A stretch of 64,000 bases of DNA from Bacteroidales bacterium (GTDB lineage Bacteria > Bacteroidota > Bacteroidia > Bacteroidales > VadinHA17): assembly GCA_034679225.1 (NCBI GenBank), contig JAXDBC010000074.1, positions 2,009-66,008 on the forward strand, given 5' to 3'. Numbering within the stretch: position 1 is the first letter of the stretch; each line of letters starts with the position of its first letter. The notes below the pieces were generated by a model. It ran no database searches, was not told the origin of the DNA, and saw only the letters and a program-made list of their open reading frames with translations. Shown here in pieces: positions 16,862 through 64,000 of the stretch. Made by a program: the position numbers and the translations under genes.

Positions 16862-16924
16862 CCGCAAAAAACCTGTTGCATTTTAGCCCCTTTTAGGGGG
16901 TTGGAGGTGATAGCCCCTTTTAGG

Positions 16925-17029
16925 GTGAAGGAGCAAGAGAATTCTGCTAATAATTGGAAAGGAATATGAACTTCAATGCTTGATATAACAAATTGAGCAA
17001 CAACATCCATTGGAAGAAGCCTTTCCCCC
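16925..17029. repeat. Copy 1 of a perfect 105-bp direct repeat in a 536-bp non-coding gap
   Basis: GTGAAGGAGCAAGAGAATTCTGCTAATAATTGGAAAGGAATATGAACTTCAATGCTTGATATAACAAATTGAGCAACAACATCCATTGGAAGAAGCCTTTCCCCC recurs identically 254 nt downstream. It contains the nested inverted repeats GGAAAGG/CCTTTCC and CTTCAATG/CATTGGAAG. Confidence 0.9.
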
Positions 17030-17178
17030 CTAAAGGGGAAACTGGAAAGGGGGTATGTGACTGCAGGGGATAACAAAAAAGAGGGTACGTGAATAAGGGG
17101 GTTCTGAGGTCTTTTTGTAATTATTTAATCACCTGTAGTTCCCTGCCGGTTATAACCCCCTTCCCAACCTTCCCCCTA

Positions 17179-17283
17179 GTGAAGGAGCAAGAGAATTCTG
17201 CTAATAATTGGAAAGGAATATGAACTTCAATGCTTGATATAACAAATTGAGCAACAACATCCATTGGAAGAAGCCTTTCCCCC
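17179..17283. repeat. Copy 2 of the perfect 105-bp direct repeat
   Basis: Identical to 16925-17029 by direct comparison. The flanks differ. Confidence 0.9.
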
Positions 17284-17290
17284 TGGGGGA

Positions 17291-17365
17291 TCCCGATAAA
17301 TCCCGATAGCTCCCGATAGCTCCCGATAGCTATCGGGACGGGACGGGACGGGAGGGGAAGGGGTA
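17291..17365. repeat. Decamer tandem repeat (TCCCGATARM x4) running into a perfect 18-bp palindrome and a (CGGGA)n tract
   Basis: The sequence is tcccgataaa tcccgatagc tcccgatagc tcccgatagc tatcggga cggga cggga cggga gggga. TCCCGATAGCTATCGGGA (17321-17338) is a perfect palindrome, and the TCCCG/CGGGA units extend the possible stem. It lies between two convergent genes, so it may act as a terminator-like hairpin. Confidence 0.8.
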
Positions 17366-17397: not shown

Positions 17398-18210
17398 TCA
17401 AGCATCTCCGGATCCCATCCCGCTGACAAAATCTGAAATCAGCTCTACCGAAAGATCCTGCTCCTCGATGAATCCCATATGCCCCGAATTCTCAAGTATC
17501 TCCAGCCTGGAATTTGCAGGCAGACTGACCTTCAGGATAATATCATCGCACGAAATGTAATTATCATGCCTGCCAAGGATCCACAGGCAGGGAACCCTCC
17601 CCTGCTCCATCACCTTAAGCCTTGAAGGCCTGTTCATCATCCCGTTGAGAACCGCAATTATTCCCTCATCACTTATTGTGGCGGCAATTTCCTCCGACCG
17701 CCGGAGATCGTCTCCGAACTTTTCGAGATTCACTGTGGAATACATCCGGGATATGTTGCCGGGGTATAAAAGATGTTTTTTGGCTGCTCTCACAACCTTC
17801 ATCTCCCTTTTCCTGTTTGCAACGACTTCCGGCCTGTCGGCAAAAGGATGGGAATGGAAAAGGCAATATGCCGAAAGCATGTCAGGAAAGAGTTCAAGAA
17901 AAGCAAGAGCTACATAGCCTCCCAATGAATGACCCGTGATGAATGCCTTCGGCAGATGAAGGTTCTCCATAAGACAAGCTATGGCCCCGGCCATGAATTC
18001 CATGCTGTGATTCACGCTGTAAACCTCCGAAAGACCATGCCCCGGAAGATCGACACAGATTACACGGAACTTCCCGGAAAGCTTATCGGCAAAACCAGCC
18101 CATATCTCCGAAGTCTCGAGATAGCCGTGAAGAAGTATGATGGCCTCTCCCTCTCCCTTATCGCTGTAATAAATCTTGCCTTCGTTGTAATTGATGTACT
18201 TCTTCATCAT
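17398..18210 (-). CDS. Alpha/beta-fold hydrolase
   Basis: Oxyanion-hole HG (ILLHGY), nucleophile elbow GHSLGG and a C-terminal His region (NSGHMGFIE). Confidence 0.8.
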   Translation of the reverse strand: MMKKYINYNEGKIYYSDKGEGEAIILLHGYLETSEIWAGFADKLSGKFRVICVDLPGHGLSEVYSVNHSMEFMAGAIACLMENLHLPKAFITGHSLGGYVALAFLELFPDMLSAYCLFHSHPFADRPEVVANRKREMKVVRAAKKHLLYPGNISRMYSTVNLEKFGDDLRRSEEIAATISDEGIIAVLNGMMNRPSRLKVMEQGRVPCLWILGRHDNYISCDDIILKVSLPANSRLEILENSGHMGFIEEQDLSVELISDFVSGMGSGDA

Positions 18211-18240
18211 AATATAATTTTAATTCTAAAAACGCCGCGC

Positions 18241-18274
18241 GGGGCACAGGGCACGGGGCACAGGGCACGGGGCA
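18241..18274. repeat. G-run array GGGGCACA GGGCAC GGGGCACA GGGCAC GGGGCA, a variant of the heptamer repeat family, flanked by direct repeats AAAACGCCGCG
   Basis: Read directly. There are five G3-4 runs separated by 3-4 nt on the + strand. The flanking AAAACGCCGCG is at about 18228-18238 and 18274-18284. The array sits 30 nt upstream of the hydrolase start, in the divergent gap with sdhC. Confidence 0.85.
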
Positions 18275-18393
18275 AAACGCCGCGTACCTTTCTTCCCCGA
18301 AAGATACTTAATCTCAGTGATTGATAATATCGTTAATTTTTATTAATTTTATTATATTGTTCCAGTCGGAAATTCCGCAAAAACTCAGGGTTT

Positions 18394-38497: not shown

Positions 38498-41400
38498 TTA
38501 TTTCACAATGGTAATGTTGCCGATGATGGGTTTCCTTCCGTTATGCAGATTAATTATGTAATGATAAGAGTCCATAGGCAGAATCGTGCCGTTACTCCTT
38601 CCGTCCCAGGGCATGGGATATCCCCTGCCCGACTTCCAGATGGTTTCACCCCACCTGTTGAATATAGTAACCTCCATTTCGGGATAGAGCTCCCTGAGTC
38701 CTATGTTCCAGACGTCATTAATATTGTCGCCGTTGGGTGATATTGCATTCGGAAGTTGCAGACACAGGTCATTCTCCGGTTCAATTCTAACGGACCTGCT
38801 TACACTGCACCCGTTTGCATCCGTAACGTTCAGGGTGTACACACCACTAACTGCATTGGTAATATCGGGCATCGTCGAATTATCCGACCAAAGGTAGGAA
38901 TAAACTGAGCCTGTACCCCCGGTTACCGTGGTTTGTATCTGGCCGTTGGGCATATCGGTGCACTGCGGTTGGGTAACGACAAATGATATAGCAATGGAGT
39001 CGGGTTCAGTGAGCAGAATTGTGGTGTCGGCCGTACAACCGTTCGAATCGACCGTTATAACTTTGTAATAACCTGCCATAAGCCCGCCACGATTACTTCC
39101 AACCTCGCCATCAGACCACAGATAATCAACACTTCCCGCATTATTGACGACTTCAACGGATATTGAACCTGTTTTTCCACCTGCGCAATTAATATTATAA
39201 CCTCCGGTAAGGCTCTCTGAAGTTGTAAGCGTGATCCCTAAAAGGCCCGGTTCCTCAAGATAAATCGTGTCGGTTACGCTGCACATCTTGCTGTCGATGA
39301 TATTCAGAATATATCTTCCCGCCTTCAGACCTGAAATGATGCTGTTTGTTGATGTGAATCCGTCAGGACCCTCCCATGAATAGATATACGGAGGCGTTCC
39401 GCTGGTGGGATTTATCTGGATGGAACCGTCGTAACGGCCGTAACATGTGATATTGAACCCGTTATAATCCGACACAACAGGCTCGTATGTGAGCGGAGGA
39501 GGATCTTCGATCATGATGCCGGCGGATTTATCACAAGCGTTGGCGTCGGTAACCACGACATGATATTCACCCCGGGTTAAACCTGAAATATCCTTTGTTA
39601 CTGCACCATTCGACCACAAATATGTATACGGTTCTATTCCTCCGGTGACTTCAAGTTCTATTGAGCCATTGTCGAAACCGGAATTCTGACAGGTTATATG
39701 GCTGGGTATCAGCTTAAGAACCAGTGCAGGAGGCTCAGTCAGTGTGATATCCGTTTCGGCAACACACCCGTTGAGATCGGTCACCAGAATGTGGTAGCTT
39801 CCTGCCGTAAGGCCGGGCTGATCCTGCTCGTTGTCCACTATCCCCGATCCGTCAGAGCTGGTCCAGACATAGCTGTAAGAACCCTCACTTCCCCCTGAAA
39901 CACTAAGATCTGCACTGCCGGTGCCTCCGTTACAGTTGATATTGAAGGATCCATCGGCAGAGACGGATGAAGTGACGCTGAGCACCAGCGGTGCAGGCTC
40001 CTCAAGAGTAAATTCCGGTCTGGGAGTGAGTACGCATCCATTGATATCCGTAACCGTACACGTGTATGTGCCTGCCTTCAGCCCCGATATATCACGGGTA
40101 ACTGCAGAAAATCCGTTGTCTCCCACCCATGAATAAGTATAATTGCCTGATCCTCCGGTGACCTGAATTTTAATATATCCATCGCTTGCCCCCTTGCATG
40201 AGATGTTGAATGCCATGTCGTTGCTGAGCGACACCTCGCTGGAGGCGAGAATCATCCCGGGAGGATCGGTCAGCGTTATGCTGTCAGTTTTCGTGCATCC
40301 CATGAAATCGGTGACCAGCACATAATACTTGCCTGCCGGAATGCTGTCGAGCCTGCTCTCATTGTTACTTATCGTGAGCGATCCTGATTCAGGATACCAG
40401 AAGTATGTGTAAGGGGCAGTCCCGCCGGTAGCCGAAGCTGTCACAAAGCCATCGCTGTACCCGTGGCATGAAACATTCGACTCCCCATAGTCGCTGACAT
40501 TCAGGCTGACTTGTATTGGAGCCGGTTCATTCAGCACTGCCTGCCTTATTGTTTCACAGCCGTTTATATCCCTGACCAGAAGAGTGTAAGTCCCGGCTCT
40601 AAGGTTTTCACAGATCCTGAATGTCGTTGGGATACCCGTATCATAATTACCGGAGAAAACGCCGGTGTAAAGGGTATCTGTCCCATTCCGGACAAACCAG
40701 TATTCATATGGGAAAGTGATCCCGTCCCTTACATAAATCCTTGCCACTCCGTTACTTCCACCGGGACAGGAAACATGGATATTAGGAAGAACAGGAATCG
40801 GGATGATCCTTGGAGTGGCGCTCAGATTGGCGATGTTGATGGAAGAATCGCCCTCGCAGCCAAGGTTATCAGTTACATTCAGCCAGTAGTATCCTGCATA
40901 GAGATTGGTGATAACAAGTGAGTCTTTCATGGTGTAACCGACAGGTCCTCCCCAGTTTATCGAATAAGGACCGGCACCTCTGGAGATTCTTGCCATAAGG
41001 GTTGCACGGCCACCACTGGTTTCGCAGGTGAAAGGCTCAAGGATATCGATACCCCTGACCGGCCTGGGATGAAGCTGAACTTCCTGAACGCCTGCTTTTC
41101 CGGCCGGACAGTTAAGTCCTTCAACTTTAGGAGTTATGCTGATAAATATCGACTGAACCGTATCATTTGTATTACTGTACTTTAACGACAGAACATCTCC
41201 CGGGATCATTCCGGTGCCGGAACCGGGATCTCCTGCCACAACTCCCGACGGAACAGCTATGTCATAATCAAACCTTATCTCACCGGAAGTCATCACGGTG
41301 GGTGATTCGAGCCGTATGGCCGTACGTTCGCCATAACAGATGGCAGGACTTACATTGACAGGCACTGCCCGCGGGGTGGGGTTGACCCATATATCTGCAC

Positions 41401-44400
41401 TATAGGGTGATCCTGAACACCTTAGGGCTCCAGACTGTGTTACAATATAGGGCAATACAGTATAGGTGACCTTTTGCGGCCGGTCGCTGATATTGTCAAT
41501 CAATTCCAGTATCTTTTCGCCTGACAGATACCCAATCCTACCGGCTTGTGTGTTGGATATGTTAACACTATCCGGAAATTCGGCCGCGACAGTGTAATCG
41601 AATCGCAGCGGTAAAGTTGCCTGGCTTATGCTGCGTATTTCAGTATTTGTTATGGTACTGTCACAGATTATGTTATCCTCTGTCACTAAATACACGGTTG
41701 GTGTCGGCTCCACCCAGATATCAATATCATAGGCAGATCCTGTGCATCGTACAGTTCCAGACTGTGTTACAGTATAAGGTACTACCGTATAGGTAAGCTT
41801 CTGTGCCCGGTTACTGAGATTATCGATACGTTCCATTATTTTCCCGCCTGACAGATATCCTGTTCTTCCGTCTTGTGTATTAATAATATTTACACTATCC
41901 GGAAAGGCTGTGTATACCGAATAAGCAAACTGCACCGGCAGCGTCGGATTGGAAATGCTCCTCATCTCTATTTGAGTCACATCATTATCGCAGATAGTAT
42001 CCTGCACAGGTATAAAATACATTGTCGGTACAGGCTCAACCCATACTTCCATGGTTGTTTTTATACCGGTACACCTGACATCACTTAATTCATCAACAGT
42101 ATATGGAGTAAAGTTAATAATAATTCGCTGTGCCTTGTTGCTCAAATTATTAAAAGTTTCAATAATAAAAGCTCCGTTTGGAAGAGATGAGCCGGAACCT
42201 GATGTTGTTATCTGAAGGCTGTCAGGTTCATCAACGTCTATATGGTAATCAAATCTCACCGGGAAAATCGGCTGAGTAGGAGATTCAACCTTAATATTGG
42301 TGGACTGCCCACTGCAAATTGTGTCCCGCGAAGGGACCAGTGTAAGCCGGGGGACAGGCTCAATCCAGATTGTCTGGATCTTCGTTGTTGTATTGTTACA
42401 GTTATCCTTTAATGTCCAGGTCCTCTTTATAAACCCGGCCTGGTCACAATCAACAAGTCCGGAATCATCATCAGTATATGTAGCTTCTAATCCGGTAGAG
42501 CAATTATCTGTTTCATCATAGACATCACCTGTTACAGAAGGTGAAATATCGTAGCTGCAATCAGTAGTGCGACAAATAATTATGTCGGCCGGGACTGTGA
42601 ATTCAGGCGGAGTCTGTTCACTGCCCGTGTTCGAATATCTCTGTCCCGTTAGTTCATTGCCACACTTATCTCTTACCGTGAAAGTATAAGTAACAGTCCA
42701 GCCACAGTCAGTACCTGTAACCTCGGTATCAGCCAAAGTAGCTGTAACAGCACCGCCGCAGTTGTCAGTGTAGCCCGACACGGCAGAAGCAGCATCGAAA
42801 GGAGCACTTATAGTGGCATTAGCCTTGCAGGAATTGATCCCGGTCAACCCGGTATAAGCGGTACCGGTCAGTGATGGAGGGGTCTGGTCCTTACCGGTGT
42901 TCGAATATGTCTGACCCGGGAGTTCATTGCCGCAGGCATCTCTTACTGTGAAGGTATAAGTAACAGTCCAGCCACAGTCATCGCCTGTAACAGAAGTGCC
43001 TGTAAGTTCAGCGGTAACAGCACCGCCGCAGTTGTCAGTGTAGCCCGACACGGCAGAAGCAGCATCGAAAGGAGCACTTGTAGTGGCATTAGCCTTGCAG
43101 GAATTGACCCCGGTTAACCCGGTATAAGCGCTACCGGTCAGTGATGGAGGGGTCTGGTTACTGCCCGAATGCTTAATAGTCTGACCCGGGAGTTCATTGC
43201 CGCAGACATCTTTTACCGTGAAGGTATATGTAACAGTCCAGCCGCAGTTATTGCCTGTAACGGCAGTGCCTGTAAGTACAGCAGTAACCTCGCATCCGCA
43301 GTTGTCAGTGTAGCCGGCAGCAGCAGCCACAGGATCAAAAGCAGGTGTACCGGCAGGCAGAGTAACAGCATTAACATAACAGGCATTGATATTGCTGGTT
43401 CCATCCGGAGCAGTTCCTGAAGGAGCAGTCCGGTCAACCGTCACGGTTGCTGAACTACTGATAATCGTCCCACAACCTTCACCGGCAGCGCTTATCCTCA
43501 CCCTGTAATAACGTGTTGCCGTTAGTACAGGTGTCGTATATGATACAGTTGCCGATCCGTTACCTTCTACAGCATTGGCCCAGGCATCGGAAACTCCATT
43601 ATCATCAGATTCCTCCCACTGATAGGTCAGAGAGGGAATACCCCCGGTGGCTGTAACACTCATTGTATGTGTTTCTCCCGAACATATCAGATCTCCTGAA
43701 GGCTGTGTCATTATTGCCGGATCCGGTACCACCGTTACAACAGCTTTATCCGTGAGCTCTGCGGAGCAGAGATTAGATAAACGTGTTGCTAAAACATTAT
43801 ATGTCGTTGATGTTGTTAAAGGCGATGAAAACAGTACAATATTCTTGCCTGTTCCAATAACCGGGGCTCCTGCAGGGCTATCATCACCATCATTTCGCAA
43901 TTGATAGGATACCCCCTTTTCAGAATCAGACAGAATTACTGATGCAGTACCTCCTTCACATATGGATGGATCCGAAACAGTCATATCTGTCCGGAGCTTT
44001 GAAACAAATAAAATAAGGTTATCTATATCCGAACATCCATCGGAATCTAATCCAATAACCCGATATGGTATGGTTTCCGACGGTGAAGCCGTTGGATGCT
44101 CAACTCTGGTATTACTCAATCCTGAAGAGGGAGTCCACAAAAATGATACGGCTGATACTGAACTGCCTCCAATAACTGCAGATTCTCCATAGCAAATAGA
44201 TTTATCAGGACCTGCATCAACTTGTAATGCCCCGGAACAATGTGCAGAATAAATGCAAATATCAAAAAAGCCATCTAACCCTCCCCAACCCCAAAATCTG
44301 ATAAATATAGTATCGCCTGCATTGTAATCCGTGCCTCTTGTAAAAGTCACCGGTTCAGGGAAGTTTGAATATCCGGGGGGATCAGCATCATCATCACAAT

Positions 44401-45169
44401 ACATATATGTTAAAGAAGAACAGGTCCCTTTATAGATAGCAAAAGAACCATCTTCGATGCCTCCTTCTGCTACGTAGTTTGAAATCCTTGAAACTTTTGC
44501 TGTAAAGTCTGGCACATCTGGAGCAATTACTTTAAACCATACATCATGAGCGCCATCAGAAAAATTACAGCCGGGATCACCAGGATATACAGACCGGGTT
44601 GCATCCAGATTATTAAAAATATTTGTTTTACATGTTCGGGTTACAGGCAAAGTAATTGCACCGCAAGGTTCATCATTAGCTAAATCGCAAGCTATTCTTA
44701 TATTCCATCCGGGCCGGTTTAGACTACTATTCGAAACAAACCTGAAGCTAAGGATCCGACCGGAAGATTTGATACTACCTGGTGTTGATGATATATTTGT
44801 GTATTGTGCAATTTTTGATCCATCACTGTCAAACACGAACAGAGTATCTTGTGCCCTGATCCATAAAGATTTAAAGATTGCTTTTATATGTCCTTCGGCA
44901 TATGGGGAAATAAATGCAATAGTGTAATCCTGATTATTCCCATAATTCCCACCAGGTCCACTGCTATCATAGAAATTTGCAAAGCATGTTTCCTTAATCT
45001 GTCCATTTGTTGAAGCATCAAGTAAGATGGTTTCCTGAGAGGAAAGATCAGTCCTTCCTATAAACATTACAAACCCGGCAGCAAACAATAATCTAACAAA
45101 CCGGATTACTGACAGTTTTAATGTTATTGGAACAATTTTATTTATGTTATCTAAACCTCTATATACCAA
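38498..45169 (-). CDS. Giant T9SS cell-surface adhesin (SprB-like) with a type-B gliding-motility C-terminal domain
   Basis: 2223 aa. C-terminus LPNAISPNGDNINDVWNI..VTIFNRWGE..WDG matches the type-B CTD. There are more than 8 SprB-type repeats (C.G..DG.I......GG..PY.Y.WS). Three HYR-like repeats of about 90 aa carry YTDNCG..CGWTVTYTFTV.D.CGNE, and three repeats of about 125 aa are PKD-like. The N-terminus has a CUB-like segment (FANFYDSSGPGGNYGNNQDYTIAF..DTLFVFDSDG). The TTG start as tracked is uncertain. Confidence 0.85.
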   Translation of the reverse strand: MVYRGLDNINKIVPITLKLSVIRFVRLLFAAGFVMFIGRTDLSSQETILLDASTNGQIKETCFANFYDSSGPGGNYGNNQDYTIAFISPYAEGHIKAIFKSLWIRAQDTLFVFDSDGSKIAQYTNISSTPGSIKSSGRILSFRFVSNSSLNRPGWNIRIACDLANDEPCGAITLPVTRTCKTNIFNNLDATRSVYPGDPGCNFSDGAHDVWFKVIAPDVPDFTAKVSRISNYVAEGGIEDGSFAIYKGTCSSLTYMYCDDDADPPGYSNFPEPVTFTRGTDYNAGDTIFIRFWGWGGLDGFFDICIYSAHCSGALQVDAGPDKSICYGESAVIGGSSVSAVSFLWTPSSGLSNTRVEHPTASPSETIPYRVIGLDSDGCSDIDNLILFVSKLRTDMTVSDPSICEGGTASVILSDSEKGVSYQLRNDGDDSPAGAPVIGTGKNIVLFSSPLTTSTTYNVLATRLSNLCSAELTDKAVVTVVPDPAIMTQPSGDLICSGETHTMSVTATGGIPSLTYQWEESDDNGVSDAWANAVEGNGSATVSYTTPVLTATRYYRVRISAAGEGCGTIISSSATVTVDRTAPSGTAPDGTSNINACYVNAVTLPAGTPAFDPVAAAAGYTDNCGCEVTAVLTGTAVTGNNCGWTVTYTFTVKDVCGNELPGQTIKHSGSNQTPPSLTGSAYTGLTGVNSCKANATTSAPFDAASAVSGYTDNCGGAVTAELTGTSVTGDDCGWTVTYTFTVRDACGNELPGQTYSNTGKDQTPPSLTGTAYTGLTGINSCKANATISAPFDAASAVSGYTDNCGGAVTATLADTEVTGTDCGWTVTYTFTVRDKCGNELTGQRYSNTGSEQTPPEFTVPADIIICRTTDCSYDISPSVTGDVYDETDNCSTGLEATYTDDDSGLVDCDQAGFIKRTWTLKDNCNNTTTKIQTIWIEPVPRLTLVPSRDTICSGQSTNIKVESPTQPIFPVRFDYHIDVDEPDSLQITTSGSGSSLPNGAFIIETFNNLSNKAQRIIINFTPYTVDELSDVRCTGIKTTMEVWVEPVPTMYFIPVQDTICDNDVTQIEMRSISNPTLPVQFAYSVYTAFPDSVNIINTQDGRTGYLSGGKIMERIDNLSNRAQKLTYTVVPYTVTQSGTVRCTGSAYDIDIWVEPTPTVYLVTEDNIICDSTITNTEIRSISQATLPLRFDYTVAAEFPDSVNISNTQAGRIGYLSGEKILELIDNISDRPQKVTYTVLPYIVTQSGALRCSGSPYSADIWVNPTPRAVPVNVSPAICYGERTAIRLESPTVMTSGEIRFDYDIAVPSGVVAGDPGSGTGMIPGDVLSLKYSNTNDTVQSIFISITPKVEGLNCPAGKAGVQEVQLHPRPVRGIDILEPFTCETSGGRATLMARISRGAGPYSINWGGPVGYTMKDSLVITNLYAGYYWLNVTDNLGCEGDSSINIANLSATPRIIPIPVLPNIHVSCPGGSNGVARIYVRDGITFPYEYWFVRNGTDTLYTGVFSGNYDTGIPTTFRICENLRAGTYTLLVRDINGCETIRQAVLNEPAPIQVSLNVSDYGESNVSCHGYSDGFVTASATGGTAPYTYFWYPESGSLTISNNESRLDSIPAGKYYVLVTDFMGCTKTDSITLTDPPGMILASSEVSLSNDMAFNISCKGASDGYIKIQVTGGSGNYTYSWVGDNGFSAVTRDISGLKAGTYTCTVTDINGCVLTPRPEFTLEEPAPLVLSVTSSVSADGSFNINCNGGTGSADLSVSGGSEGSYSYVWTSSDGSGIVDNEQDQPGLTAGSYHILVTDLNGCVAETDITLTEPPALVLKLIPSHITCQNSGFDNGSIELEVTGGIEPYTYLWSNGAVTKDISGLTRGEYHVVVTDANACDKSAGIMIEDPPPLTYEPVVSDYNGFNITCYGRYDGSIQINPTSGTPPYIYSWEGPDGFTSTNSIISGLKAGRYILNIIDSKMCSVTDTIYLEEPGLLGITLTTSESLTGGYNINCAGGKTGSISVEVVNNAGSVDYLWSDGEVGSNRGGLMAGYYKVITVDSNGCTADTTILLTEPDSIAISFVVTQPQCTDMPNGQIQTTVTGGTGSVYSYLWSDNSTMPDITNAVSGVYTLNVTDANGCSVSRSVRIEPENDLCLQLPNAISPNGDNINDVWNIGLRELYPEMEVTIFNRWGETIWKSGRGYPMPWDGRSNGTILPMDSYHYIINLHNGRKPIIGNITIVK
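42606..43425. repeat. Three tandem 270-bp (90-aa) repeats inside the adhesin gene; the two distal copies are nearly identical at DNA level
   Basis: GTAACAGCACCGCCGCAGTTGTCAGTGTAGCCCGACACGGCAGAAGCAGCATCGAAAGGAGCACTT occurs at about 42744 and again at about 43014, an offset of 270. The surrounding sequence aligns with few mismatches. Confidence 0.85.
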
Positions 45170-52083: not shown

Positions 52084-52689
52084 ATGGAGATTGTATTTGC
52101 ATCGAACAACCTGAATAAAATCAGGGAAATAAATAATGCCCTTGGAAATAGCTTTAAGCTGTTAAGCCTCAAGGATATCGACATGGATGAAGATATCCCT
52201 GAGAACGAAGCAACTCTCGAAGGCAATGCCCTGATTAAGGCCAGGTTCATTCACAATGCCACTGGGATGAATGTCTTTGCCGATGATACAGGCCTCGAAA
52301 CCGAGGCTCTGAATGGAGATCCGGGAGTGCATTCAGCCCGCTTTGCCGGGGAAAACAAGGATTCCGAAGCCAATATCGACAAGCTCCTTGCCCTGCTCGA
52401 AAAGAAAACCAGCCGCAAAGCCAGATTCAGAACAGTAATTGCACTCATCCTCGATGGAAAAGAGCATCTTTTCGAAGGAACGGTGGCAGGAGAAATAATC
52501 ACCGAAAGAAGAGGCAAAATGGGATTCGGGTATGATCCCGTGTTCCTGCCTGAAGGAAGAAAGCTGACCTTTGCTGAAATGGACCTTGATGAAAAGAACA
52601 AAATTTCACACAGGGCCAGGGCCTTTGCCGGCCTGAAAGCATTCCTTTCCGAATATGCTTCAGAGAAAAAAATCGACTCCATATTATAA
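52084..52689 (+). CDS. rdgB: Non-canonical purine NTP pyrophosphatase (RdgB/HAM1 family)
   Basis: VFASNNLNKIREI, EATLEGNALIKA, DDTGLE, GFGYDPVF and ISHRARA motifs. Confidence 0.9.
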   Translation: MEIVFASNNLNKIREINNALGNSFKLLSLKDIDMDEDIPENEATLEGNALIKARFIHNATGMNVFADDTGLETEALNGDPGVHSARFAGENKDSEANIDKLLALLEKKTSRKARFRTVIALILDGKEHLFEGTVAGEIITERRGKMGFGYDPVFLPEGRKLTFAEMDLDEKNKISHRARAFAGLKAFLSEYASEKKIDSIL

Positions 52690-52759
52690 TAAATGAATGA
52701 TGAAACCCACATGTGTCAAATGAAAGCGGCTCGCGGCGTGCGGTCTGCACCTTGAGTTG

Positions 52760-52829
52760 CCCTGTGCCCTGTGCCCTGTGCCCTGAGCCCTGTGCCCTGT
52801 GCCCTGTGCCCTGTGCCCTGAGCCCTGTG
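52760..52829. repeat. Tandem heptamer array (CCCTGTG)n of 10 units, with units 4 and 9 being CCCTGAG, plus a degenerate 11th unit
   Basis: Counted directly from the sequence. It lies in the rdgB to PorZ-like intergenic gap and ends 45 nt before the ATG at 52875. Confidence 0.95.
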
Positions 52830-52874
52830 CCTTACGTCTGTGTTACACATTATTAAAATAAAAGTTATATTAAG

Positions 52875-55151
52875 ATGAGGAACCTGTTGTCAATAACAGT
52901 AGCGGTTTTCATCCTGTTCAGGCTGAACGGCCAGGCACCCCCCGGTACCTGGACCGACCGGCTGAGCTACAACTCTGCTACAGGCATTGCAGGCAATTCA
53001 GATATTATTTATGCATCAACCGGAACTTCAATAATGGTTCATGAAGCCGGTATGAATGAACTCAGGAAACTGTCACCCGTAAGCGGCCTTTCCGAAACGG
53101 GAATTGCTGCCATTGAATGGTCAGAGGAAAACAAGACTCTCGTGATTGCATATAACAGCCTGAACCTTGACCTTGTAAAAGGAAATAAAATTGAAAATAT
53201 ACCCGACATCAGGAACCACTTCCCCGGTATCAGGAAAAAAATCAACAGAATCAGGACAAACGAACAATTTGCCTGCCTGGCTTCCGGATATGGCATCATA
53301 GTTGCCGATATCTCCAGGAAAGAGATCCGCGATACATGGAAACCCGGTCAGGACGAGGGCGACAATGAGGTCTTCGATCTTGCCTTCGGCAATGGTTCTG
53401 TTTACGCCGCAACATCCAATGGTTTGTGGCAGGCTGATATTCAAAACCAGGGACTGGCATACCCGGGTAACTGGCGGAGAGTAACCGGAATGCCTGAGTC
53501 AACCTGCAACCTGCTTGTCTTTTCTGACGGAACTCTTTACTGCAACTTCCCGGGTGAAGCAGCCGGTGACATTGTATATGCAGTAAACGAAGGAGCTTCC
53601 GTTTTTTCCCAATCGCCCGGAACAACCAACAGATCAATGGATACTGCTCCCGGGGGATTTACCATTTCTTCATCCCGCTCACTCAGATACTATAATTCCC
53701 GGGGATTGCTTATCAGGGAAATAGATTCCTACGGCTGGGGGCAGCCAGACATCTTCCAGGCAATGATCTCAGGATCTGACATATGGATAGCCGACAGGGC
53801 ACTTGGCATAATACATGGAAAAAACATGGCTGATTTTGCCAGACTGCCGGTTTCCGGACCTGCCTCAAACAAAGTGGCAATGATTGCCTCAGAGGGAGGC
53901 AAAACAATTATATGCCCGGGAGGGATATCCGGTTCATATGCGGGCCTGAAGATTCCTTTTAATGTTTCAGTCCATGACGGGCAGAAATTTGAAATCATTT
54001 CATCCGATATCCATACTGATGCAATGAGAGCAGTAAGCGATCCCTCAGATCCTTCGGTATTTTTCGTATCATCCTGGGGAGGAGGCTTGTTCCGCTATAA
54101 AAACAACAGAGCCGATAAGATATACGACGCTTCAAATTCCCCTCTTCAGGAATCAGGAGCACCGGGAGAAACAAGGGTGCTTGGTCTTGCTTTTGACAGA
54201 TCAGGAAACCTGTGGGTGACACAAGCTGATGTCAGGGAAAAAATCAAAATACTGAAGCCCGACGGTAACTGGATCAGCTATCCCCGGATTATTGACTCCC
54301 CCCTTGCAGGCGATCTGATATCAACTTCAAAAGGCCAGATCTGGATCATCCTTCCCGGAGGCTATGGATTATTCATTATCGACGACAACGGAACACCTGA
54401 TATTTACACCGACGACCTCACCAGGAGGCTGACAATAAGCGACAGCGACAACAGGATATTCGGTTCCGCCTTCGCCCTTGCCGAGGATCTCGATGGAAAC
54501 ATCTGGGTCGGCACTGACCAGGGTCCGGTAATCTATCACAATCCTGAGCGGATTTTTGACAGCGATGTAAGGGGAAGCAGGATCAGGGTGCCGAGAAACG
54601 ACGGATCGGGACTGGCCGACTACATGCTCGGTAAAGAAACAATAACCTCAATATCGGTTGACGGTGCGAACAGGAAGTGGCTTGGAACCTCAAACTCCGG
54701 AGCCTATCTCCTTTCAGCCGACGGCACTCAGGTCCTGAAGAATTACAATGCCTTCAACAGTCCTCTTTTCTCCGACTCAATAGCTTCCATTGCCATTGAC
54801 CAGGTTTCCGGCGAGGTATGGCTCGGCACCTCCGAAGGGACTCTTTCAATAAGGGAAACTGCAACTTCGGGAAAAGCTTCATTCAGCAAGGTCTATTCAT
54901 TCCCGAATCCTGTCAGGGAGGACTTCACAGGCAATGTAACCATTACCGGACTGATGAGGGATACAGAGATTAAGATAACCGATATCAGCGGAAACCTGGT
55001 TTACGAGACGATCTCCGAAGGAGGACAGGCATCGTGGGACTTGACCACCTATAACGGCAGGAGGGTACGATCGGGGGTTTATCTTGTATTTTGTGCCGCG
55101 GGCGACGGTTCCGAATCGTGCATCACAAGGATACTTGTAATATCAAGATGA
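52875..55151 (+). CDS. porZ: PorZ-like T9SS protein: double beta-propeller (two-component-regulator propeller repeats) with a type-A C-terminal sorting domain
   Basis: Signal peptide. Repeated Reg_prop-like motifs (IWIADRALGI, NLWVTQAD, IWVGTDQGPVIY, KWLGTSNSGAYLL, VWLGTSEGTLSI). C-terminus FPNPVREDFTGNVTITGL..ITDISGNLVYE..WDLTTYNGRRVRSGVYLVF. Size (758 aa) and architecture match PorZ, but the symbol is tentative. Confidence 0.6.
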   Translation: MRNLLSITVAVFILFRLNGQAPPGTWTDRLSYNSATGIAGNSDIIYASTGTSIMVHEAGMNELRKLSPVSGLSETGIAAIEWSEENKTLVIAYNSLNLDLVKGNKIENIPDIRNHFPGIRKKINRIRTNEQFACLASGYGIIVADISRKEIRDTWKPGQDEGDNEVFDLAFGNGSVYAATSNGLWQADIQNQGLAYPGNWRRVTGMPESTCNLLVFSDGTLYCNFPGEAAGDIVYAVNEGASVFSQSPGTTNRSMDTAPGGFTISSSRSLRYYNSRGLLIREIDSYGWGQPDIFQAMISGSDIWIADRALGIIHGKNMADFARLPVSGPASNKVAMIASEGGKTIICPGGISGSYAGLKIPFNVSVHDGQKFEIISSDIHTDAMRAVSDPSDPSVFFVSSWGGGLFRYKNNRADKIYDASNSPLQESGAPGETRVLGLAFDRSGNLWVTQADVREKIKILKPDGNWISYPRIIDSPLAGDLISTSKGQIWIILPGGYGLFIIDDNGTPDIYTDDLTRRLTISDSDNRIFGSAFALAEDLDGNIWVGTDQGPVIYHNPERIFDSDVRGSRIRVPRNDGSGLADYMLGKETITSISVDGANRKWLGTSNSGAYLLSADGTQVLKNYNAFNSPLFSDSIASIAIDQVSGEVWLGTSEGTLSIRETATSGKASFSKVYSFPNPVREDFTGNVTITGLMRDTEIKITDISGNLVYETISEGGQASWDLTTYNGRRVRSGVYLVFCAAGDGSESCITRILVISR

Positions 55152-59530: not shown

Positions 59531-59776
59531 TTTCCTAAAAAGTCATCAAGGGCTCCGTGTTCCCAGCCATACCTGTAATGACTCAGAAAGACTCTACTTC
59601 CCTGGTTTTTCAATTCCAGACGGAACTGCCCGGTGCAGAAATTGATATACCTGCAGGGATGGCAAACACGATTCAGATATCAAACGATGATATGATTGAA
59701 CAAAGATGCAGTAAGAATTTGATCAGATTACAGGAAAATGTTAAATTGCCGCATAATCTCAAAAAGGAGTTAAAAT

Positions 59777-61184: not shown

Positions 61185-62654
61185 TTACTGACTCACTATC
61201 TTAAGCAATTTTCCAACTTCAACCTTATCGTTAAGCTCCAGGTCGTTCAGCAGTGCAAACTCAGCATGCTGAGCCTGGGGAACCCTGAAATAATTGAATG
61301 CATCAGCAACCGTACCGGCCCTGGCAACCTTAACCACTTTTATCCTCTTCGGTTGTACATTTATTTTCGAGGCTTCGGTCAGGTTCGAAAAAGTGGACAT
61401 GGCCGTGTTCATGGTCGTGGCATAGGTATTGAAATCGGCTTCGGTCGAAACTCCATGGAATACATATATCAAACTGCCGTGGCTGATAAAATAACTGAGC
61501 ACAAGGTTTGTTGACGTTGCACCGGTCGACTGGTTCTGATAAACCTGTTTTGCCTGTGTCATGATAGCCTGCAAACCGTTAACAGTCGTTCTCCTGCTTC
61601 CCGTGGGAGTCAGCCCGTATCTTGCCATGGTGGTGTCAACAGCGGCTTCAAGAGTCTTCTGATCCGACAGCATGAAAAGAATCAGGGCCTTTCCATCAGA
61701 AGGGCTCATTGTTACCTGGAGGGGTGAGTTCTCAAGCTTCCAGCCCATGGGATATCCAAATTTGAATTTCAACTCGGGATGATAGAATACATTGTTCTCG
61801 ACATAGCCCTGCCTGGGATCATCACCGTAAATAATCCCGTTAATCATCTGAAGATACTGATCCTGGTTTACTTTGTATGCCCCCAGGTTCAGCCGGGTCT
61901 GCCATTCCGCCGCCTGCCTGTTCACGTCGTTATACCTGTCGCCCGGATCGGGATGTGTCGACAGGAATGTGGGTATTCCTCCCTCACTTTCTGCAAGACT
62001 CATCTTCTTCAGCACCTTGAAGAATTCTGCCATTTTATGGGCATCATACCCAAGCTTCGATGAATACTCGACACCAAGGGCATCAGCCTGCCTTTCATCG
62101 TCGCGGCTGAAACTGAGGAACAGGAGCTCAAGCCCCTGCATGGCATACTGGGCGTACTGGGCAAACTTATCGGAGGCAATCATACCGCCGATCAGAGCAA
62201 TCTGTGCAAGCTGCTGCTTGCTCTGGGTTGCAACTGTATGCCGGGCTGTGATATGACCCATCTCATGAGCCAGAACACCTATCAGTTCAGCTTCACTGTT
62301 AAGCTGTGCAAGAATGCCACGGGTGAGATAAATATACCCGCCCGGAACGGCAAAGGCGTTGACAACAGGTGAATCCACAACCTTTACATGGTAAGCAAGA
62401 TTCGGACGATGGGATATCTTTCCCATTTCATTGCCCTTGGCCTGTACAAAAGATTGAAGATTATTATCGTTATAGACTCCAAAAGTTGCAAGAACCTGCG
62501 GATCATAAGACACTCCAAGTGCGATTTCCTGTTGTTCCGACATAAGCATTATCTGTTTCTTGCCGGTTACAGGATTGACCGCACATGATATCACCAGCAG
62601 AACTGTAGCGGTGAACAGCACCAAAACTACCGGAATACTCAGCTTTTTCATCAT
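61185..62654 (-). CDS. M48 family zinc metallopeptidase lipoprotein
   Basis: Lipobox LLVISC. HEMGHITARH (HExxH) with a downstream E (FSRDDERQAD). Extra C-terminal domain of about 230 aa. Confidence 0.85.
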   Translation of the reverse strand: MMKKLSIPVVLVLFTATVLLVISCAVNPVTGKKQIMLMSEQQEIALGVSYDPQVLATFGVYNDNNLQSFVQAKGNEMGKISHRPNLAYHVKVVDSPVVNAFAVPGGYIYLTRGILAQLNSEAELIGVLAHEMGHITARHTVATQSKQQLAQIALIGGMIASDKFAQYAQYAMQGLELLFLSFSRDDERQADALGVEYSSKLGYDAHKMAEFFKVLKKMSLAESEGGIPTFLSTHPDPGDRYNDVNRQAAEWQTRLNLGAYKVNQDQYLQMINGIIYGDDPRQGYVENNVFYHPELKFKFGYPMGWKLENSPLQVTMSPSDGKALILFMLSDQKTLEAAVDTTMARYGLTPTGSRRTTVNGLQAIMTQAKQVYQNQSTGATSTNLVLSYFISHGSLIYVFHGVSTEADFNTYATTMNTAMSTFSNLTEASKINVQPKRIKVVKVARAGTVADAFNYFRVPQAQHAEFALLNDLELNDKVEVGKLLKIVSQ

Positions 62655-62672
62655 AATATAATTTTGATTTTA
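62649..62672 (-). promoter_or_regulatory. 24-nt AT-rich leader/start block (minus strand TAAAATCAAAATTATATTATGATG), copy at the M48 peptidase start
   Basis: Identical 24-mer at 63112-63135. A 22/24 match lies at 18205-18228 (hydrolase start), and a related block TAAAATAAAAGTTATATTAAGATG lies at the 52875 start. Confidence 0.7.
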
Positions 62673-62685
62673 ATGGGATGACTCA

Positions 62686-62727
62686 GGGCACAGGGCGCAG
62701 GGCACAGAGCACAGGACGCAGGGCAAC
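62686..62727. repeat. Degenerate heptamer array (GGGCACA-type, about 6 units), the reverse complement of the 52760 array
   Basis: gggcaca gggcgca gggcaca gagcaca ggacgca gggcaac, followed by TCAAGGAGCAGACCGCATGCCGCGCG. That flank is the near-exact reverse complement of GCGGCGTGCGGTCTGCACCTTGA, which precedes the 52760 array. Confidence 0.85.
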
Positions 62728-63050
62728 TCAAGGAGCAGACCGCATGCCGCGCGCTGTTCTTTCCGCGTACCGTTCTGTTCATCTGATTTCTGTTGATTAA
62801 TGCCTGAAATTTATGATGTATTTGATTCTAAAAAAATTTAAACCAAAGATTGCAAAAAAATTGCCATTAATAAAATCAGATCCTAAAATATCGTGAGCCG
62901 CATATAAGTTAATTACAAACCGACCTTCTTCTATCTATTCACAACACTCATAAGGATTTTAACCGCTTGAGTATATCAATGTATGCCCTGGCAGCCTGAT
63001 TTGCCTGAGAATCAGGCTCAGGGGTCTGAAAAACATATCGTTTTAGGTAA

Positions 63051-63099: not shown

Positions 63100-63117
63100 C
63101 GTATTTTTTTCCATCAT
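63085..63117 (-). other. 10-codon mini-ORF (MMEKNTKIYR) behind a duplicated copy of the peptidase leader
   Basis: The minus strand reads ATGATGGAAAAAAATACGAAAATTTATCGATAA. It is preceded by the identical 24-nt leader block (63112-63135), and its 3' half forms one arm of the palindrome. Coding status is unproven. Confidence 0.25.
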
Positions 63118-63250
63118 AATATAATTTTGATTTTAGAGGTATGATTTATTTAATCCCTTGTTCTTGAAAGATATCTTCAGATTAATTTCATATTTTTATA
63201 TGTTTTGAAATTTTATCAAGCCTTATAATTAACATTAAACAGATTCTGTC

Positions 63251-64000
63251 ATGAAAAAAATCCTGCCTGTCATCCTGCTTTGTGCAATTGTTGCCTTTTT
63301 GAGTGCCTGCAGCTCAAATGCCGAAAAGACCACCGTGGTCAAAACCGACATTACGGAATTCCTCGGTCAGTGGACTATCGATATTGAAAACGGATCCGTC
63401 GGCTGGATCGAAGTCCGCCAGGAAGACGGCTACCTTGATGCCGATATCCTGTGGGGAGGAGGAAGCGTGTTGCCGGTGTCATCGGTGTTTCTTGCAAAAG
63501 ATTATGTACTTACAATACAGAGATCAAATAACGTTGTGAGAAAGAGAGATGAAGAAAGAAATCCCGTAAAATCCCAAACAGTAACCAGCTGGCTCGAGAT
63601 CGTCAGGGACGGGGAAAAGATAAATGGCATCCTGTTAACCCCGGGAAGGGATGGTCTAAGTGTTGATACAACAACTTTCAGCGGGGTAAAGCTCCCGCCG
63701 GTACCATCTGCTCCTGACCTTGCCGCGGTCAAATTCGGTGAGCCGGAACAGCTATTCAACGGGAAAGACCTGACAGGATGGAAGCTTGTCAATGAAAAAC
63801 AGACTAACGGATTCACTGTTGTTGACGGGACTCTTGTCAATGATCCGGTTCAGAAGGAAGGTGAACGTGTTAGCTACGGAAACCTCCGGACCGAAAAGGA
63901 ATTCAGCGACTTCAACATAAAATATGAAGTCAATGTTCCGGCCGGCAGCAACAGCGGCGTTTATCTAAGGGGAATTTATGAAATACAGGTTGTGGATTCA
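63251..64000 (+). CDS. Lipoprotein with a DUF1080 / 3-keto-disaccharide hydrolase-like domain (3' end outside the window)
   Basis: This ORF is absent from the ORF track because it runs off the window. My own translation from ATG 63251 gives MKKILPVILLCAIVAFLSACSS.. (lipobox), then ..LFNGKDLTGWKLVN..GFTVVDGTLVN..GNLRTEKEFSDFNIKYEVNVPAGSNSGVYLRGIYEIQVVDS, the characteristic DUF1080 pattern. The frame is open through nt 64000. Confidence 0.75.
   Translation, partial: MKKILPVILLCAIVAFLSACSSNAEKTTVVKTDITEFLGQWTIDIENGSVGWIEVRQEDGYLDADILWGGGSVLPVSSVFLAKDYVLTIQRSNNVVRKRDEERNPVKSQTVTSWLEIVRDGEKINGILLTPGRDGLSVDTTTFSGVKLPPVPSAPDLAAVKFGEPEQLFNGKDLTGWKLVNEKQTNGFTVVDGTLVNDPVQKEGERVSYGNLRTEKEFSDFNIKYEVNVPAGSNSGVYLRGIYEIQVVDS

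Follow-up and report, generated by a model that had tools for sequence, protein, structure and literature searches.

Along a 64,000-nucleotide stretch of contig JAXDBC010000074.1 from the Bacteroidales assembly GCA_034679225.1 (positions 2,009 to 66,008 of the forward strand, in the following termed the window), three arrays of a heptanucleotide with the consensus CCCYGNG are located 27–45 nt 5' of three unrelated genes, which code for a PorZ-like protein of the type IX secretion system (T9SS), an M48 peptidase and an alpha/beta hydrolase. In each case, the C-rich strand coincides with the sense strand of the gene. At these loci, which we refer to as sites 1 to 3 (Table 1), the repeats are followed by a common A/T-rich leader of about 20 nt, and at sites 1 and 2 they are preceded by a common flank of 27 nt that is not present at site 3. 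All copies of the array in the window are intergenic and their antisense strand reads (GGGCACA)n or (GGGGCAC)n, thus displaying a tandem unit of 7 nt with a tract of three or more guanines. The proposal of an earlier note on this DNA, that these segments are copies of one dispersed cassette and not a coincidence, is borne out by the homology of flank and leader between loci and by the absence of the whole unit from the corresponding junctions of sister species. Within the window, a two-unit pattern with up to two mismatches returned 18 matches compared to 0.24 expected by chance, with respective numbers of 2 and 0.00 for the flank and 4 and 0.41 for the leader. The leader is found at none of the approximately 40 other gene starts of the window and thus does not constitute a general start context of this genome.

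Architecture of the repeat cassettes

At site 1, the unit number, the position of the two variant units, the 35-nt period of the array and the distance of 45 nt between its end and the ATG at position 52875, which is directly preceded by TAAAATAAAAGTTATATTAAG, are all as the earlier note stated. For the arrays of sites 2 and 3, this distance amounts to 27 nt if the first ATG is taken and to 30 nt if the second is, and the spacing of 30–45 nt previously given for all three sites thus holds for site 1 and for the second ATG of the other two, but not for the first. At both sites, the second ATG (position 62651 in the M48 peptidase gene) is probably the true start, because the orthologues are one residue shorter. 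For the M48 peptidase, the open reading frame (ORF) in the window encompasses 489 residues compared to 488 in nearly all orthologues, a difference that we attribute to the site 2 insertion abutting the native start codon. The orientation of the arrays follows the gene and not the chromosome strand, with site 1 on the plus and sites 2 and 3 on the minus strand. As the GC skew is uniformly negative across the window and arrays are found on both strands, a replication-related cause of this orientation is ruled out.

The site 3 array is bracketed by an 11-nt direct repeat with the plus-strand sequence AAAACGCCGCG (18229–18239 and 18275–18285), which may have been left by a target duplication or else belong to a repeat of higher order. 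The same repeat, slightly diverged, is found in a strain of 94% identity. Besides the three arrays, the window contains a solitary copy of the leader without repeats (site 4), which is identical to the site 2 leader over 24 nt and separated from it by 460 nt. It could be either the relic of a cassette or the native source of the copied leader. In reverse complement, this copy contains a perfect TAHHTTTG box, located 121 nt 5' of a divergent PF06439 gene resembling 3-keto-disaccharide hydrolases that starts at position 63251.

Table 1. Coordinates of cassette components and adjoining genes in the 64-kb window.
Feature	Position	Strand	Remarks
Site 1 cassette	52690..52871	+	From HAM1 stop codon to 'AAG ATG' of the porZ-like gene; not in sister species
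Site 1 GC-rich 5' flank GCGGCGTGCGGTCTGCACCTTGAGTTG	52733..52759	+	25 of 27 positions match site 2
Site 1 (CCCTGTG)10 array	52760..52829	+	Two identical 35-nt blocks; CCCTGAG as units 4 and 9
Site 1 spacer with decayed units CCTTACGTCTGTGTTACACATTAT	52830..52853	+	Indel differences compared to strain L261
Site 1 A/T-rich leader TAAAATAAAAGTTATATTAAG	52854..52874	+	Putative translation-initiation region; A at –3, –6, –12, –13, –14
PorZ-like T9SS gene, downstream of site 1	52875..55151	+	Pfam PF21544, PF18962
HAM1/RdgB-like gene, former porZ operon partner	52084..52689	+	Pfam PF01725; porZ neighbour in sister species
Site 2 cassette (CAGAACGG, flank, array, AAAATTATATTATG)	62652..62777	-	Against native M48 ATG; not in sister species
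Site 2 flank GCGGCATGCGGTCTGCTCCTTGAGTTG	62724..62750	-	25 of 27 positions match site 1 flank
Site 2 array	62682..62723	-	Six degenerate units: CCCTGCG, TCCTGTG, CTCTGTG, CCCTGCG, CCCTGTG, CCCTGAG
Site 2 leader TAAAATCAAAATTATATT	62655..62672	-	Followed by ATG ATG
M48 peptidase gene, downstream of site 2	61185..62654	-	Pfam PF01435
Site 3 cassette variant	18211..18292	-	GGTACGCGGCGTTTTG, five units, CGCGGCGTTTT, leader
Site 3 array	18238..18274	-	Five CCCCGTG/CCCTGTG units
Site 3 leader TAGAATTAAAATTATATT	18211..18228	-	
Alpha/beta-hydrolase gene, downstream of site 3	17398..18210	-	Pfam PF00561
Site 4, solo leader TAAAATCAAAATTATATTATGATG	63112..63135	-	Without array; followed by an ORF of only 10 codons

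Insertion into conserved gene junctions and variation between strains

The history of the cassettes is revealed by a comparison with sister species, whose PorZ orthologues are 81% (GCA_964429295.1) and 74% identical and whose gene order is fully conserved (QueA, TruB, BacA, DUF3098, FtsX, aminotransferase, cyclase, HAM1, PorZ, cyclase/HD, RecO, GH3, dNK and, further along, GFO/IDH and M48). No arrays are found in about 20 kb of these syntenic loci. The spacer between HAM1 and porZ, which spans 11 nt (CGAACTGACAG) or 3 nt (AAG) in sister species, extends over 185 nt in the window, indicating that flank, array and leader have entered the operon junction together while the 'AAG ATG' was kept. Equally, the M48 junction of sister species, where cattaatcaactataaatttgatgaa is directly followed by ATGAAAAAACTG (gatgaa/ATG), is free of a cassette and collinear in its upstream sequence, whereas in the window the cassette is placed exactly between the two sides, with cattaatcaacagaaatcagatgaa followed by CAGAACGG, flank, array and AAAATTATATTATG and then by ATGAAAAAGCTG. 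In front of the hydrolase, a relative of 72% identity carries a plain, repeat-free spacer of 169 nt. The spacer between sdhC and the hydrolase of a second relative (78% identity, L281 2397–2420) holds an unrelated compound repeat with a short array of three GGCGCAG units in opposite orientation, which suggests that this spacer has been colonized repeatedly and independently. The N-terminus of the hydrolase, natively MNYY (ATGAATTATTAC), reads MMKKY (ATGATGAAGAAGTAC) in the window. The segment copied to site 3 thus extends into the first codons, as would be expected with a donor such as site 2.

In total, copies of the cassette were located at no fewer than four gene-start junctions, those of the porZ-like, M48 peptidase and alpha/beta-hydrolase genes and, outside of the window, that of a GH3 glycosidase gene. 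At the three window junctions, the cassette is absent in sister species, and it lands 0–3 nt from the start codon. The alternative, that these differences originate from deletions in the sister species instead of insertions in this lineage, would require independent and precise losses in two to three species at each of three loci. Multiple copies and a presence/absence polymorphism between relatives are traits also found in miniature inverted-repeat transposable elements (MITEs) and insertion sequences. However, a search for inverted repeats (seed of at least 6 nt, length of at least 9 nt) did not retrieve any and thus no terminal inverted repeats of the MITE type, which rules out an assignment as MITE or repetitive extragenic palindromic (REP) element. 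A common target duplication was not found at the junctions of sites 1 and 2. As a separate difference in the same region, sister species contain a gene for a 945-residue M16 peptidase between dNK and GFO/IDH (e.g. L264 16686–19523), where the window has only 246 nt (59531–59776), and a deletion of this gene seems to have occurred in the window lineage.

The same loci were retrieved from other samples by exact-protein look-ups and one metagenome scan, and their arrays differ in length at each of the three sites. Site 1 contains ten units in the window but three in a strain of 95% identity (L261), site 2 contains six compared to seven in an ENA contig of about 99% identity (L123), and site 3 contains five compared to eight in a strain of 94% identity (L255). 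In two further groups of sequences with 99.3% identity (L130–135 and L256–263), site 3 retains five units, of which two are substituted, within 180 nt of unchanged flanking sequence. Length changes between strains thus amount to 7–49 nt. At site 1, the identity of the two 35-nt halves indicates that the array was last enlarged by a duplication of five units. These data support the earlier suggestion of a slippage-prone tract, since the unit number differs at all three loci between strains that are 94–99% identical. The counts are taken from short-read metagenome assemblies, in which arrays of up to 70 nt should be reliable if large k-values were used, whereas Logan contigs (k=31) terminate inside the arrays.

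The fourth cassette, upstream of the GH3 glycosidase gene, carries 22–26 units and adjoins a (CAATKAG) array of 21–29 units, and in contig L262 a diverged version of the flank precedes its array. This contig (Ga0302237_1003398, 1–9092), which belongs to the same lineage, harbours nine different heptamer arrays in 9 kb, including CAATTAG with 21 and CCCYGNG with 22 units, TTTCACC, CTGAACC, GCCGCCA and TTTCCAC, together with a complex element that is present twice, measures about 150 nt and is built of several short repeats. No such repeats are found at the syntenic loci of sister species, and the lineage seems to have gone through a general burst of short tandem repeats. Close to the hydrolase gene, a segment of about 400 nt (16901–17299), which holds a duplicated block of about 100 nt (16926–17026 and 17181–17281), is missing from four strains of 99.3% identity (L256, L259, L260 and L263). 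It is adjoined at 17291–17362 by a compound repeat of palindromic character, which consists of (TCCCGATAGC)n and then (CGGGA)n, whose unit numbers vary between strains and which is seen again in L262 at 8626–8672; this repeat is a second dispersed and unstable family of the same organism. A longer tandem repeat of 270 nt (2.5 copies, 86% match) at 42627–43315 is part of a 2223-residue ORF (38498–45169, minus strand) and presumably corresponds to repeated domains in a surface protein of very large size.

Variable arrays next to start codons could also act as contingency loci, in which the number of heptamers in the 5' untranslated region (UTR) sets expression in a graded or switch-like manner, akin to the (ATCTTTC)n repeat of hmw1A in Haemophilus influenzae. 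This reading would account for the differences in unit number between close strains at all loci and for the probable location of the array in a transcribed leader, and it has a precedent in hmw itself, where a transcribed heptamer repeat of the 5' UTR pairs with a G-rich arm to tune expression (PMC12721329). In the predicted fold of site 2, the G-rich flank can indeed pair with array units (z=–2.57), but for site 1 (z=+0.27) and site 3 (z=–1.29) the equivalent pairing does not reach significance. Moreover, the genes that follow the arrays have housekeeping or unrelated functions (M48 peptidase, hydrolase, GH3) and do not form a set of surface antigens, the arrays lie outside of ORFs and not inside of them or between promoter elements as would be expected for phase variation, and CCCTGTG arrays of other lineages are, among the matches listed, mostly found after stop codons. 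We thus regard a contingency locus as quite improbable. RNA folding of both strands at the three sites did not yield any consistent or significant structure, which rules out a riboswitch, an attenuator or a terminator, and Rfam 15 shows no match at its gathering threshold anywhere in the window.

Transcription, translation and the preferred explanation

In Bacteroidetes, promoters recognized by sigma-ABfr contain a –7 box with the sequence TAnnTTTG, refined to TAHHTTTG, which is located 4–5 nt 5' of the transcription start, and the leaders of Flavobacterium johnsoniae transcripts have an average length of 33 nt (PMC6847099). We therefore scanned for TAnnTTTG, as sigma-70 promoter and terminator scans are unsuited to this phylum. 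The window contains 19 perfect –7 boxes, five of which are located 13–27 nt 5' of the start codons of other genes. In contrast, there is no sense-strand TAnnTTT[GA] in the three intergenic regions that bear a cassette, and neither –33 nor –7 elements flank the arrays on this strand. These observations suggest that the cassette carries no promoter of its own. At site 1, which is a former operon junction of 3–11 nt, read-through from the HAM1 promoter would be the simplest source of porZ mRNA.

Both the promoter and the array of regulator-binding sites that were put forward in the earlier note are disfavoured. If the cassette acted as a portable promoter, or its array as binding sites for a regulator dedicated to it, the tagged genes would make up a small regulon. 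In line with such a role, the same succession of flank, array and leader precedes four functionally unrelated genes, native upstream sequence has been displaced and an ancestral –7-like box at the M48 gene is degraded. However, a sense-strand –7 box is lacking, and site 1 was inserted in an operon junction, where no promoter is required. The putative binding units, moreover, are conserved neither in number nor in sequence, both of which drift freely between close strains, and their spacing of 7 bp is out of phase with the DNA helix. Either version of this proposal is consequently very improbable.

Whereas promoter elements were not found, the leader looks like a translation-initiation region of the type used by Bacteroidia. 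Counted from the ATG that all copies have in common (at sites 2 and 3, the second one), it contains adenines at positions –3, –6, –12, –13 and –14, and adenines at –3, –6, –12 and –13 are positive determinants of initiation in F. johnsoniae (PMC6847099). The leader is also unpaired in every predicted fold. An ORF of 43 codons on the minus strand (62651–62782) starts with an ATG that immediately precedes the point of insertion at site 2, runs through flank, array and leader and terminates where it overlaps the M48 start in the sequence ATGA. It was dismissed as a cassette feature, as it is not conserved, is interrupted at site 1 by a stop codon before the array and is shifted in frame in the seven-unit allele.

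The reverse complement of the leader resembles a –7 box (TAATTTTG), which raises the question whether it drives an antisense or divergent G-rich transcript, in which case the cassette would be the gene of a small or antisense RNA. Perfect TAHHTTTG boxes on the antisense strand are found at sites 2 and 4, accounting for two of only 19 in the 64-kb window, and the site 4 box faces the PF06439 gene. Yet the key guanine is missing at site 1 (TAACTTTT) and site 3 (TAATTTTA), and the A-run of a translation-initiation region automatically generates a T-run on the other strand. Since the putative RNA body would in addition vary from three to ten units between strains, with no terminator, significant fold or Rfam match for an antisense RNA, we consider this possibility as extremely improbable.

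Taken together, we favour an explanation, to which we assign a probability of roughly 0.6, where (CCCTGTG)n is a slippage-prone heptamer repeat of a known G-rich class, which is carried in a small, copied and lineage-specific 5'-UTR cassette that supplies the translation start region. The copied unit of about 100 nt would consist of the GC-rich 5' flank, the array and the A/T-rich translation-initiation segment at its 3' end. Transcription would originate from a pre-existing upstream promoter, thus placing the cassette within the 5' UTR or, at site 1, in the intercistronic spacer of the former HAM1-porZ operon. Since the insertion displaces the translation start region of the gene, only copies whose orientation allows the A-rich leader to take its place would leave the gene expressed and survive, which would explain their uniform orientation. 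As neither inverted ends nor a consistent duplication of the target are seen, as the copied segment at site 3 runs into the first codons and as sites 1, 2 and 4 lie within 10.5 kb, we infer that the cassette would have spread by ectopic recombination or template switching, without a transposase. The arrays would change their length by slipped-strand mispairing or unequal exchange, including steps of several units as in the exact 35-nt duplication of site 1. Any effect on expression, via the length of the UTR or the formation of G-quadruplex (G4) or i-motif structures on DNA, would most probably be incidental and not amount to a switch under selection.

Several observations weigh against this explanation. 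The number of copies, four cassettes and one solo leader, is small. The array is assigned to the UTR instead of the promoter by the absence of sequence motifs, and Bacteroidia also use extracytoplasmic function (ECF)-type and non-consensus promoters. One sister species (L279) has a near-consensus –7 box beside its M48 start (TAAATTTG), which in the window has decayed to GAAATCAG, and the promoter function could have moved elsewhere, possibly into the cassette. With respect to the variation in length, arrays of 150–180 nt (L257, L262) may be miscounted and the coverage of L123 amounts to only about 1.6x. Finally, a canonical G4 motif is kept in most alleles, and the recurrence of the placement rule described below in three phyla could reflect a function as well as a mutational bias.

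Distribution in other bacteria and relation to known repeats

A scan for three exact CCCTGTG units in one genome per GTDB species identified at least 116 loci. The following refers to the matches listed. About 46 loci are from diverse metagenome-assembled genomes (MAGs) of uncultured Bacteroidales and other Bacteroidota with a GC content of 37–48%, and the others from unrelated, mostly GC-rich taxa; none is from the source species, and neither the 27-nt flank nor the leader occurs in any of them. The arrays usually have further short tandem arrays as neighbours, for example GGTGCCT, CTCCATG, CGTTTGT and the octamer GTCTTGCG, the latter of which is similar to the GCGGTCT core of the flank. We analyzed the placement of 57 array clusters in 46 Bacteroidota loci using an ORF-based gene call with masked arrays. 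Essentially all clusters lie between ORFs or overlap merely with the end of one. In 30 of the 57, the nearest gene boundary is the stop codon of an ORF whose sense strand is the G-rich one, and 22 of these are found between –10 and +12 nt from the stop. Another 11 clusters are likewise closest to a stop codon, but with the C-rich strand in sense direction, and the configuration of the window, next to a start codon, is found in only 11. Overall, of the two neighbouring ORFs, the one that lies 5' with respect to the G-rich strand is the nearer one for 33 of 44 arrays (p=0.0013). The same orientation of all copies, with the C-rich strand as sense strand, which had been noted at the outset, is thus confirmed in four of four copies of the lineage but does not hold as a general rule, as arrays of other Bacteroidota are mostly located past stop codons with the G-rich strand in sense direction. 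In three Bacteroidales MAGs from different species (L143, L159 and L192), the same conserved gene end (...AAGCATGGGAATATGCCRCTRTAR) is followed 2–3 nt further on by a (CACAGGG)n array, which seems either to persist across species or to be acquired repeatedly. A search of viral contigs with a degenerate array pattern returned, among the matches listed, mostly single and unrelated hits, the pattern being too loose, and literature searches with CCCTGTG, GGGCACA and CACAGGG retrieved only eukaryotic coincidences such as the variable number tandem repeat of the insulin gene.

The placement bears on the question whether the array is a selected, structure-forming regulator in cis, which by adopting a G4 or i-motif conformation modulates or terminates transcription. 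The strong bias for the G-rich strand as sense strand 0–12 nt past stop codons in other Bacteroidota would be compatible with such a role, and the placement rule is shared with the GGGNATC repeats of other bacteria, which formed G4 and i-motif structures in circular dichroism (CD) experiments (PMC4692102). Scored on sequence only, as four runs of three guanines with loops of up to 7 nt, the canonical G4 motif is found at sites 1 and 3 of the window and in five of the seven alleles examined. However, it is missing from the window allele of site 2, for which the G4 assignment of the earlier note does not hold, and from the three-unit allele of site 1 in the strain of 95% identity. Such loss in some alleles argues against a selected structure, as do the range of unit numbers from three to more than 20 with no sign of constraint and the fact that Rehm et al. 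could not show a regulatory role for their repeats. We thus consider a selected structure as unlikely. Distinctly unlikely, in our view, is a non-autonomous mobile 'start-codon cassette' that targets ORF boundaries, brings its own translation start and contains a G4- and i-motif-prone array whose length sets downstream expression. The same machinery would then explain the arrays at stop and start codons in many Bacteroidales and perhaps in Xanthomonas and Nostoc.

The preferred explanation, a slippage-prone repeat within a copied 5'-UTR cassette, has implications beyond this locus. Among the long simple repeats of bacteria, heptamers are the commonest class, yet neither a function nor an origin has been established for them. 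With the uncultured Bacteroidales of digesters, sediments and soils, G-rich heptamer arrays are found in a third phylum, and the recurrence of the same odd placement rule as in Xanthomonas and Nostoc argues for a general mechanism, either mutational or functional. As the insertions can be placed relative to sister species, with exact junctions against start codons, the origin of such arrays becomes testable. If confirmed, the copied A-rich leader would represent a portable translation-initiation region in a phylum without Shine-Dalgarno recognition and thus a simple route for the rewiring of 5' UTRs. Since the arrays break k-mer assemblies and vary between strains, they can in addition serve as strain markers and are a source of the fragmentation of MAGs.

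Compared to known systems, the cassettes resemble MITEs, REP sequences and bacterial interspersed mosaic elements (BIMEs) as short, non-coding, multi-copy segments at gene boundaries that are present or absent between relatives, but they have neither terminal inverted repeats or palindromic units nor a consistent target duplication, and their ends are not fixed, as illustrated by the extension of the 3' end into codons at site 3. With the hmw repeat, where a long hairpin, processing by RNase III and an inverse relation between unit number and expression were demonstrated experimentally (PMC12721329), they share the heptameric unit, its variable number, a G-rich partner region adjoining the repeats and a presumed location in the 5' UTR. 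Unlike in hmw, which is a single virulence locus and not a dispersed cassette, no consistent hairpin is predicted. According to Mrazek et al. 2007, as summarized in PMC4679880, heptanucleotides are the commonest class of long simple sequence repeats (SSRs) in prokaryotes, and in the outline given there, such SSRs reside for the most part in intergenic DNA, are distributed over various phyla and are ascribed to slippage of the polymerase (PMC4679880). The long SSR and STRR classes are statistical or descriptive with no defined architecture, and the CCCTGTG unit and this lineage do not figure in these accounts as summarized. The STRR heptamers of cyanobacteria, which were reportedly described by Mazel and colleagues in 1990, are likewise said to consist of heptanucleotide units.

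The assertion that no element of this kind had been described is contradicted by two classes of heptamers (Rehm et al. 2015, PMC4692102; MacGregor 2015, PMC4679880). TAACTGA repeats, which occur in marine Beggiatoaceae, cyanobacteria and a few Bacteroidetes, were proposed as binding site for a post-transcriptional regulator (PMC4679880). Like the arrays of the window, they are intergenic and forward-oriented, a few to tens of nucleotides before the start codons of unrelated genes, sometimes long, located beside other heptamer arrays and missing from the same spacer in close relatives. In contrast to CCCTGTG, their unit is AT-rich, devoid of G-tracts and contains stop codons, and a cassette of flank and leader was not described for them (PMC4679880).

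The closest correspondence is found in the GGGAATC and GGGGA(C/T)T repeats of Xanthomonas and Nostoc, which are non-coding and consist of 2–26 units whose number varies between close relatives (Rehm et al. 2015, PMC4692102). They reside at most 50 bp 5' of an ORF on its antisense strand, or up to 50 bp past a stop codon in the sense strand, nearest to their 5' neighbour irrespective of the orientation of that gene. These repeats are transcribed and form G4 and i-motif structures in vitro as monitored by CD, and they mostly have the same genes on either side in related species, unlinked to mobile DNA (PMC4692102). The arrays described here share with them the tandem unit of 7 nt with a tract of 3–4 guanines, the non-coding location, the variation in length and sequence, the placement rule and the functionally unrelated neighbouring genes. 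They differ in their unit, which is GGGCACA and not GGGNATC or GGGGAYT, in their phylum and in the fact that the window array is embedded in a copied cassette of flank and leader that is missing at the junctions of sister species. With a matching architecture and a different unit, they belong to the class of Rehm et al. by architecture without being sequence members of its families. (CCCTGTG)n would thus represent in Bacteroidales what the G-rich heptamer repeats are in Xanthomonas and Nostoc, with the unit, the phylum and the copied cassette of flank and leader as its novel features.

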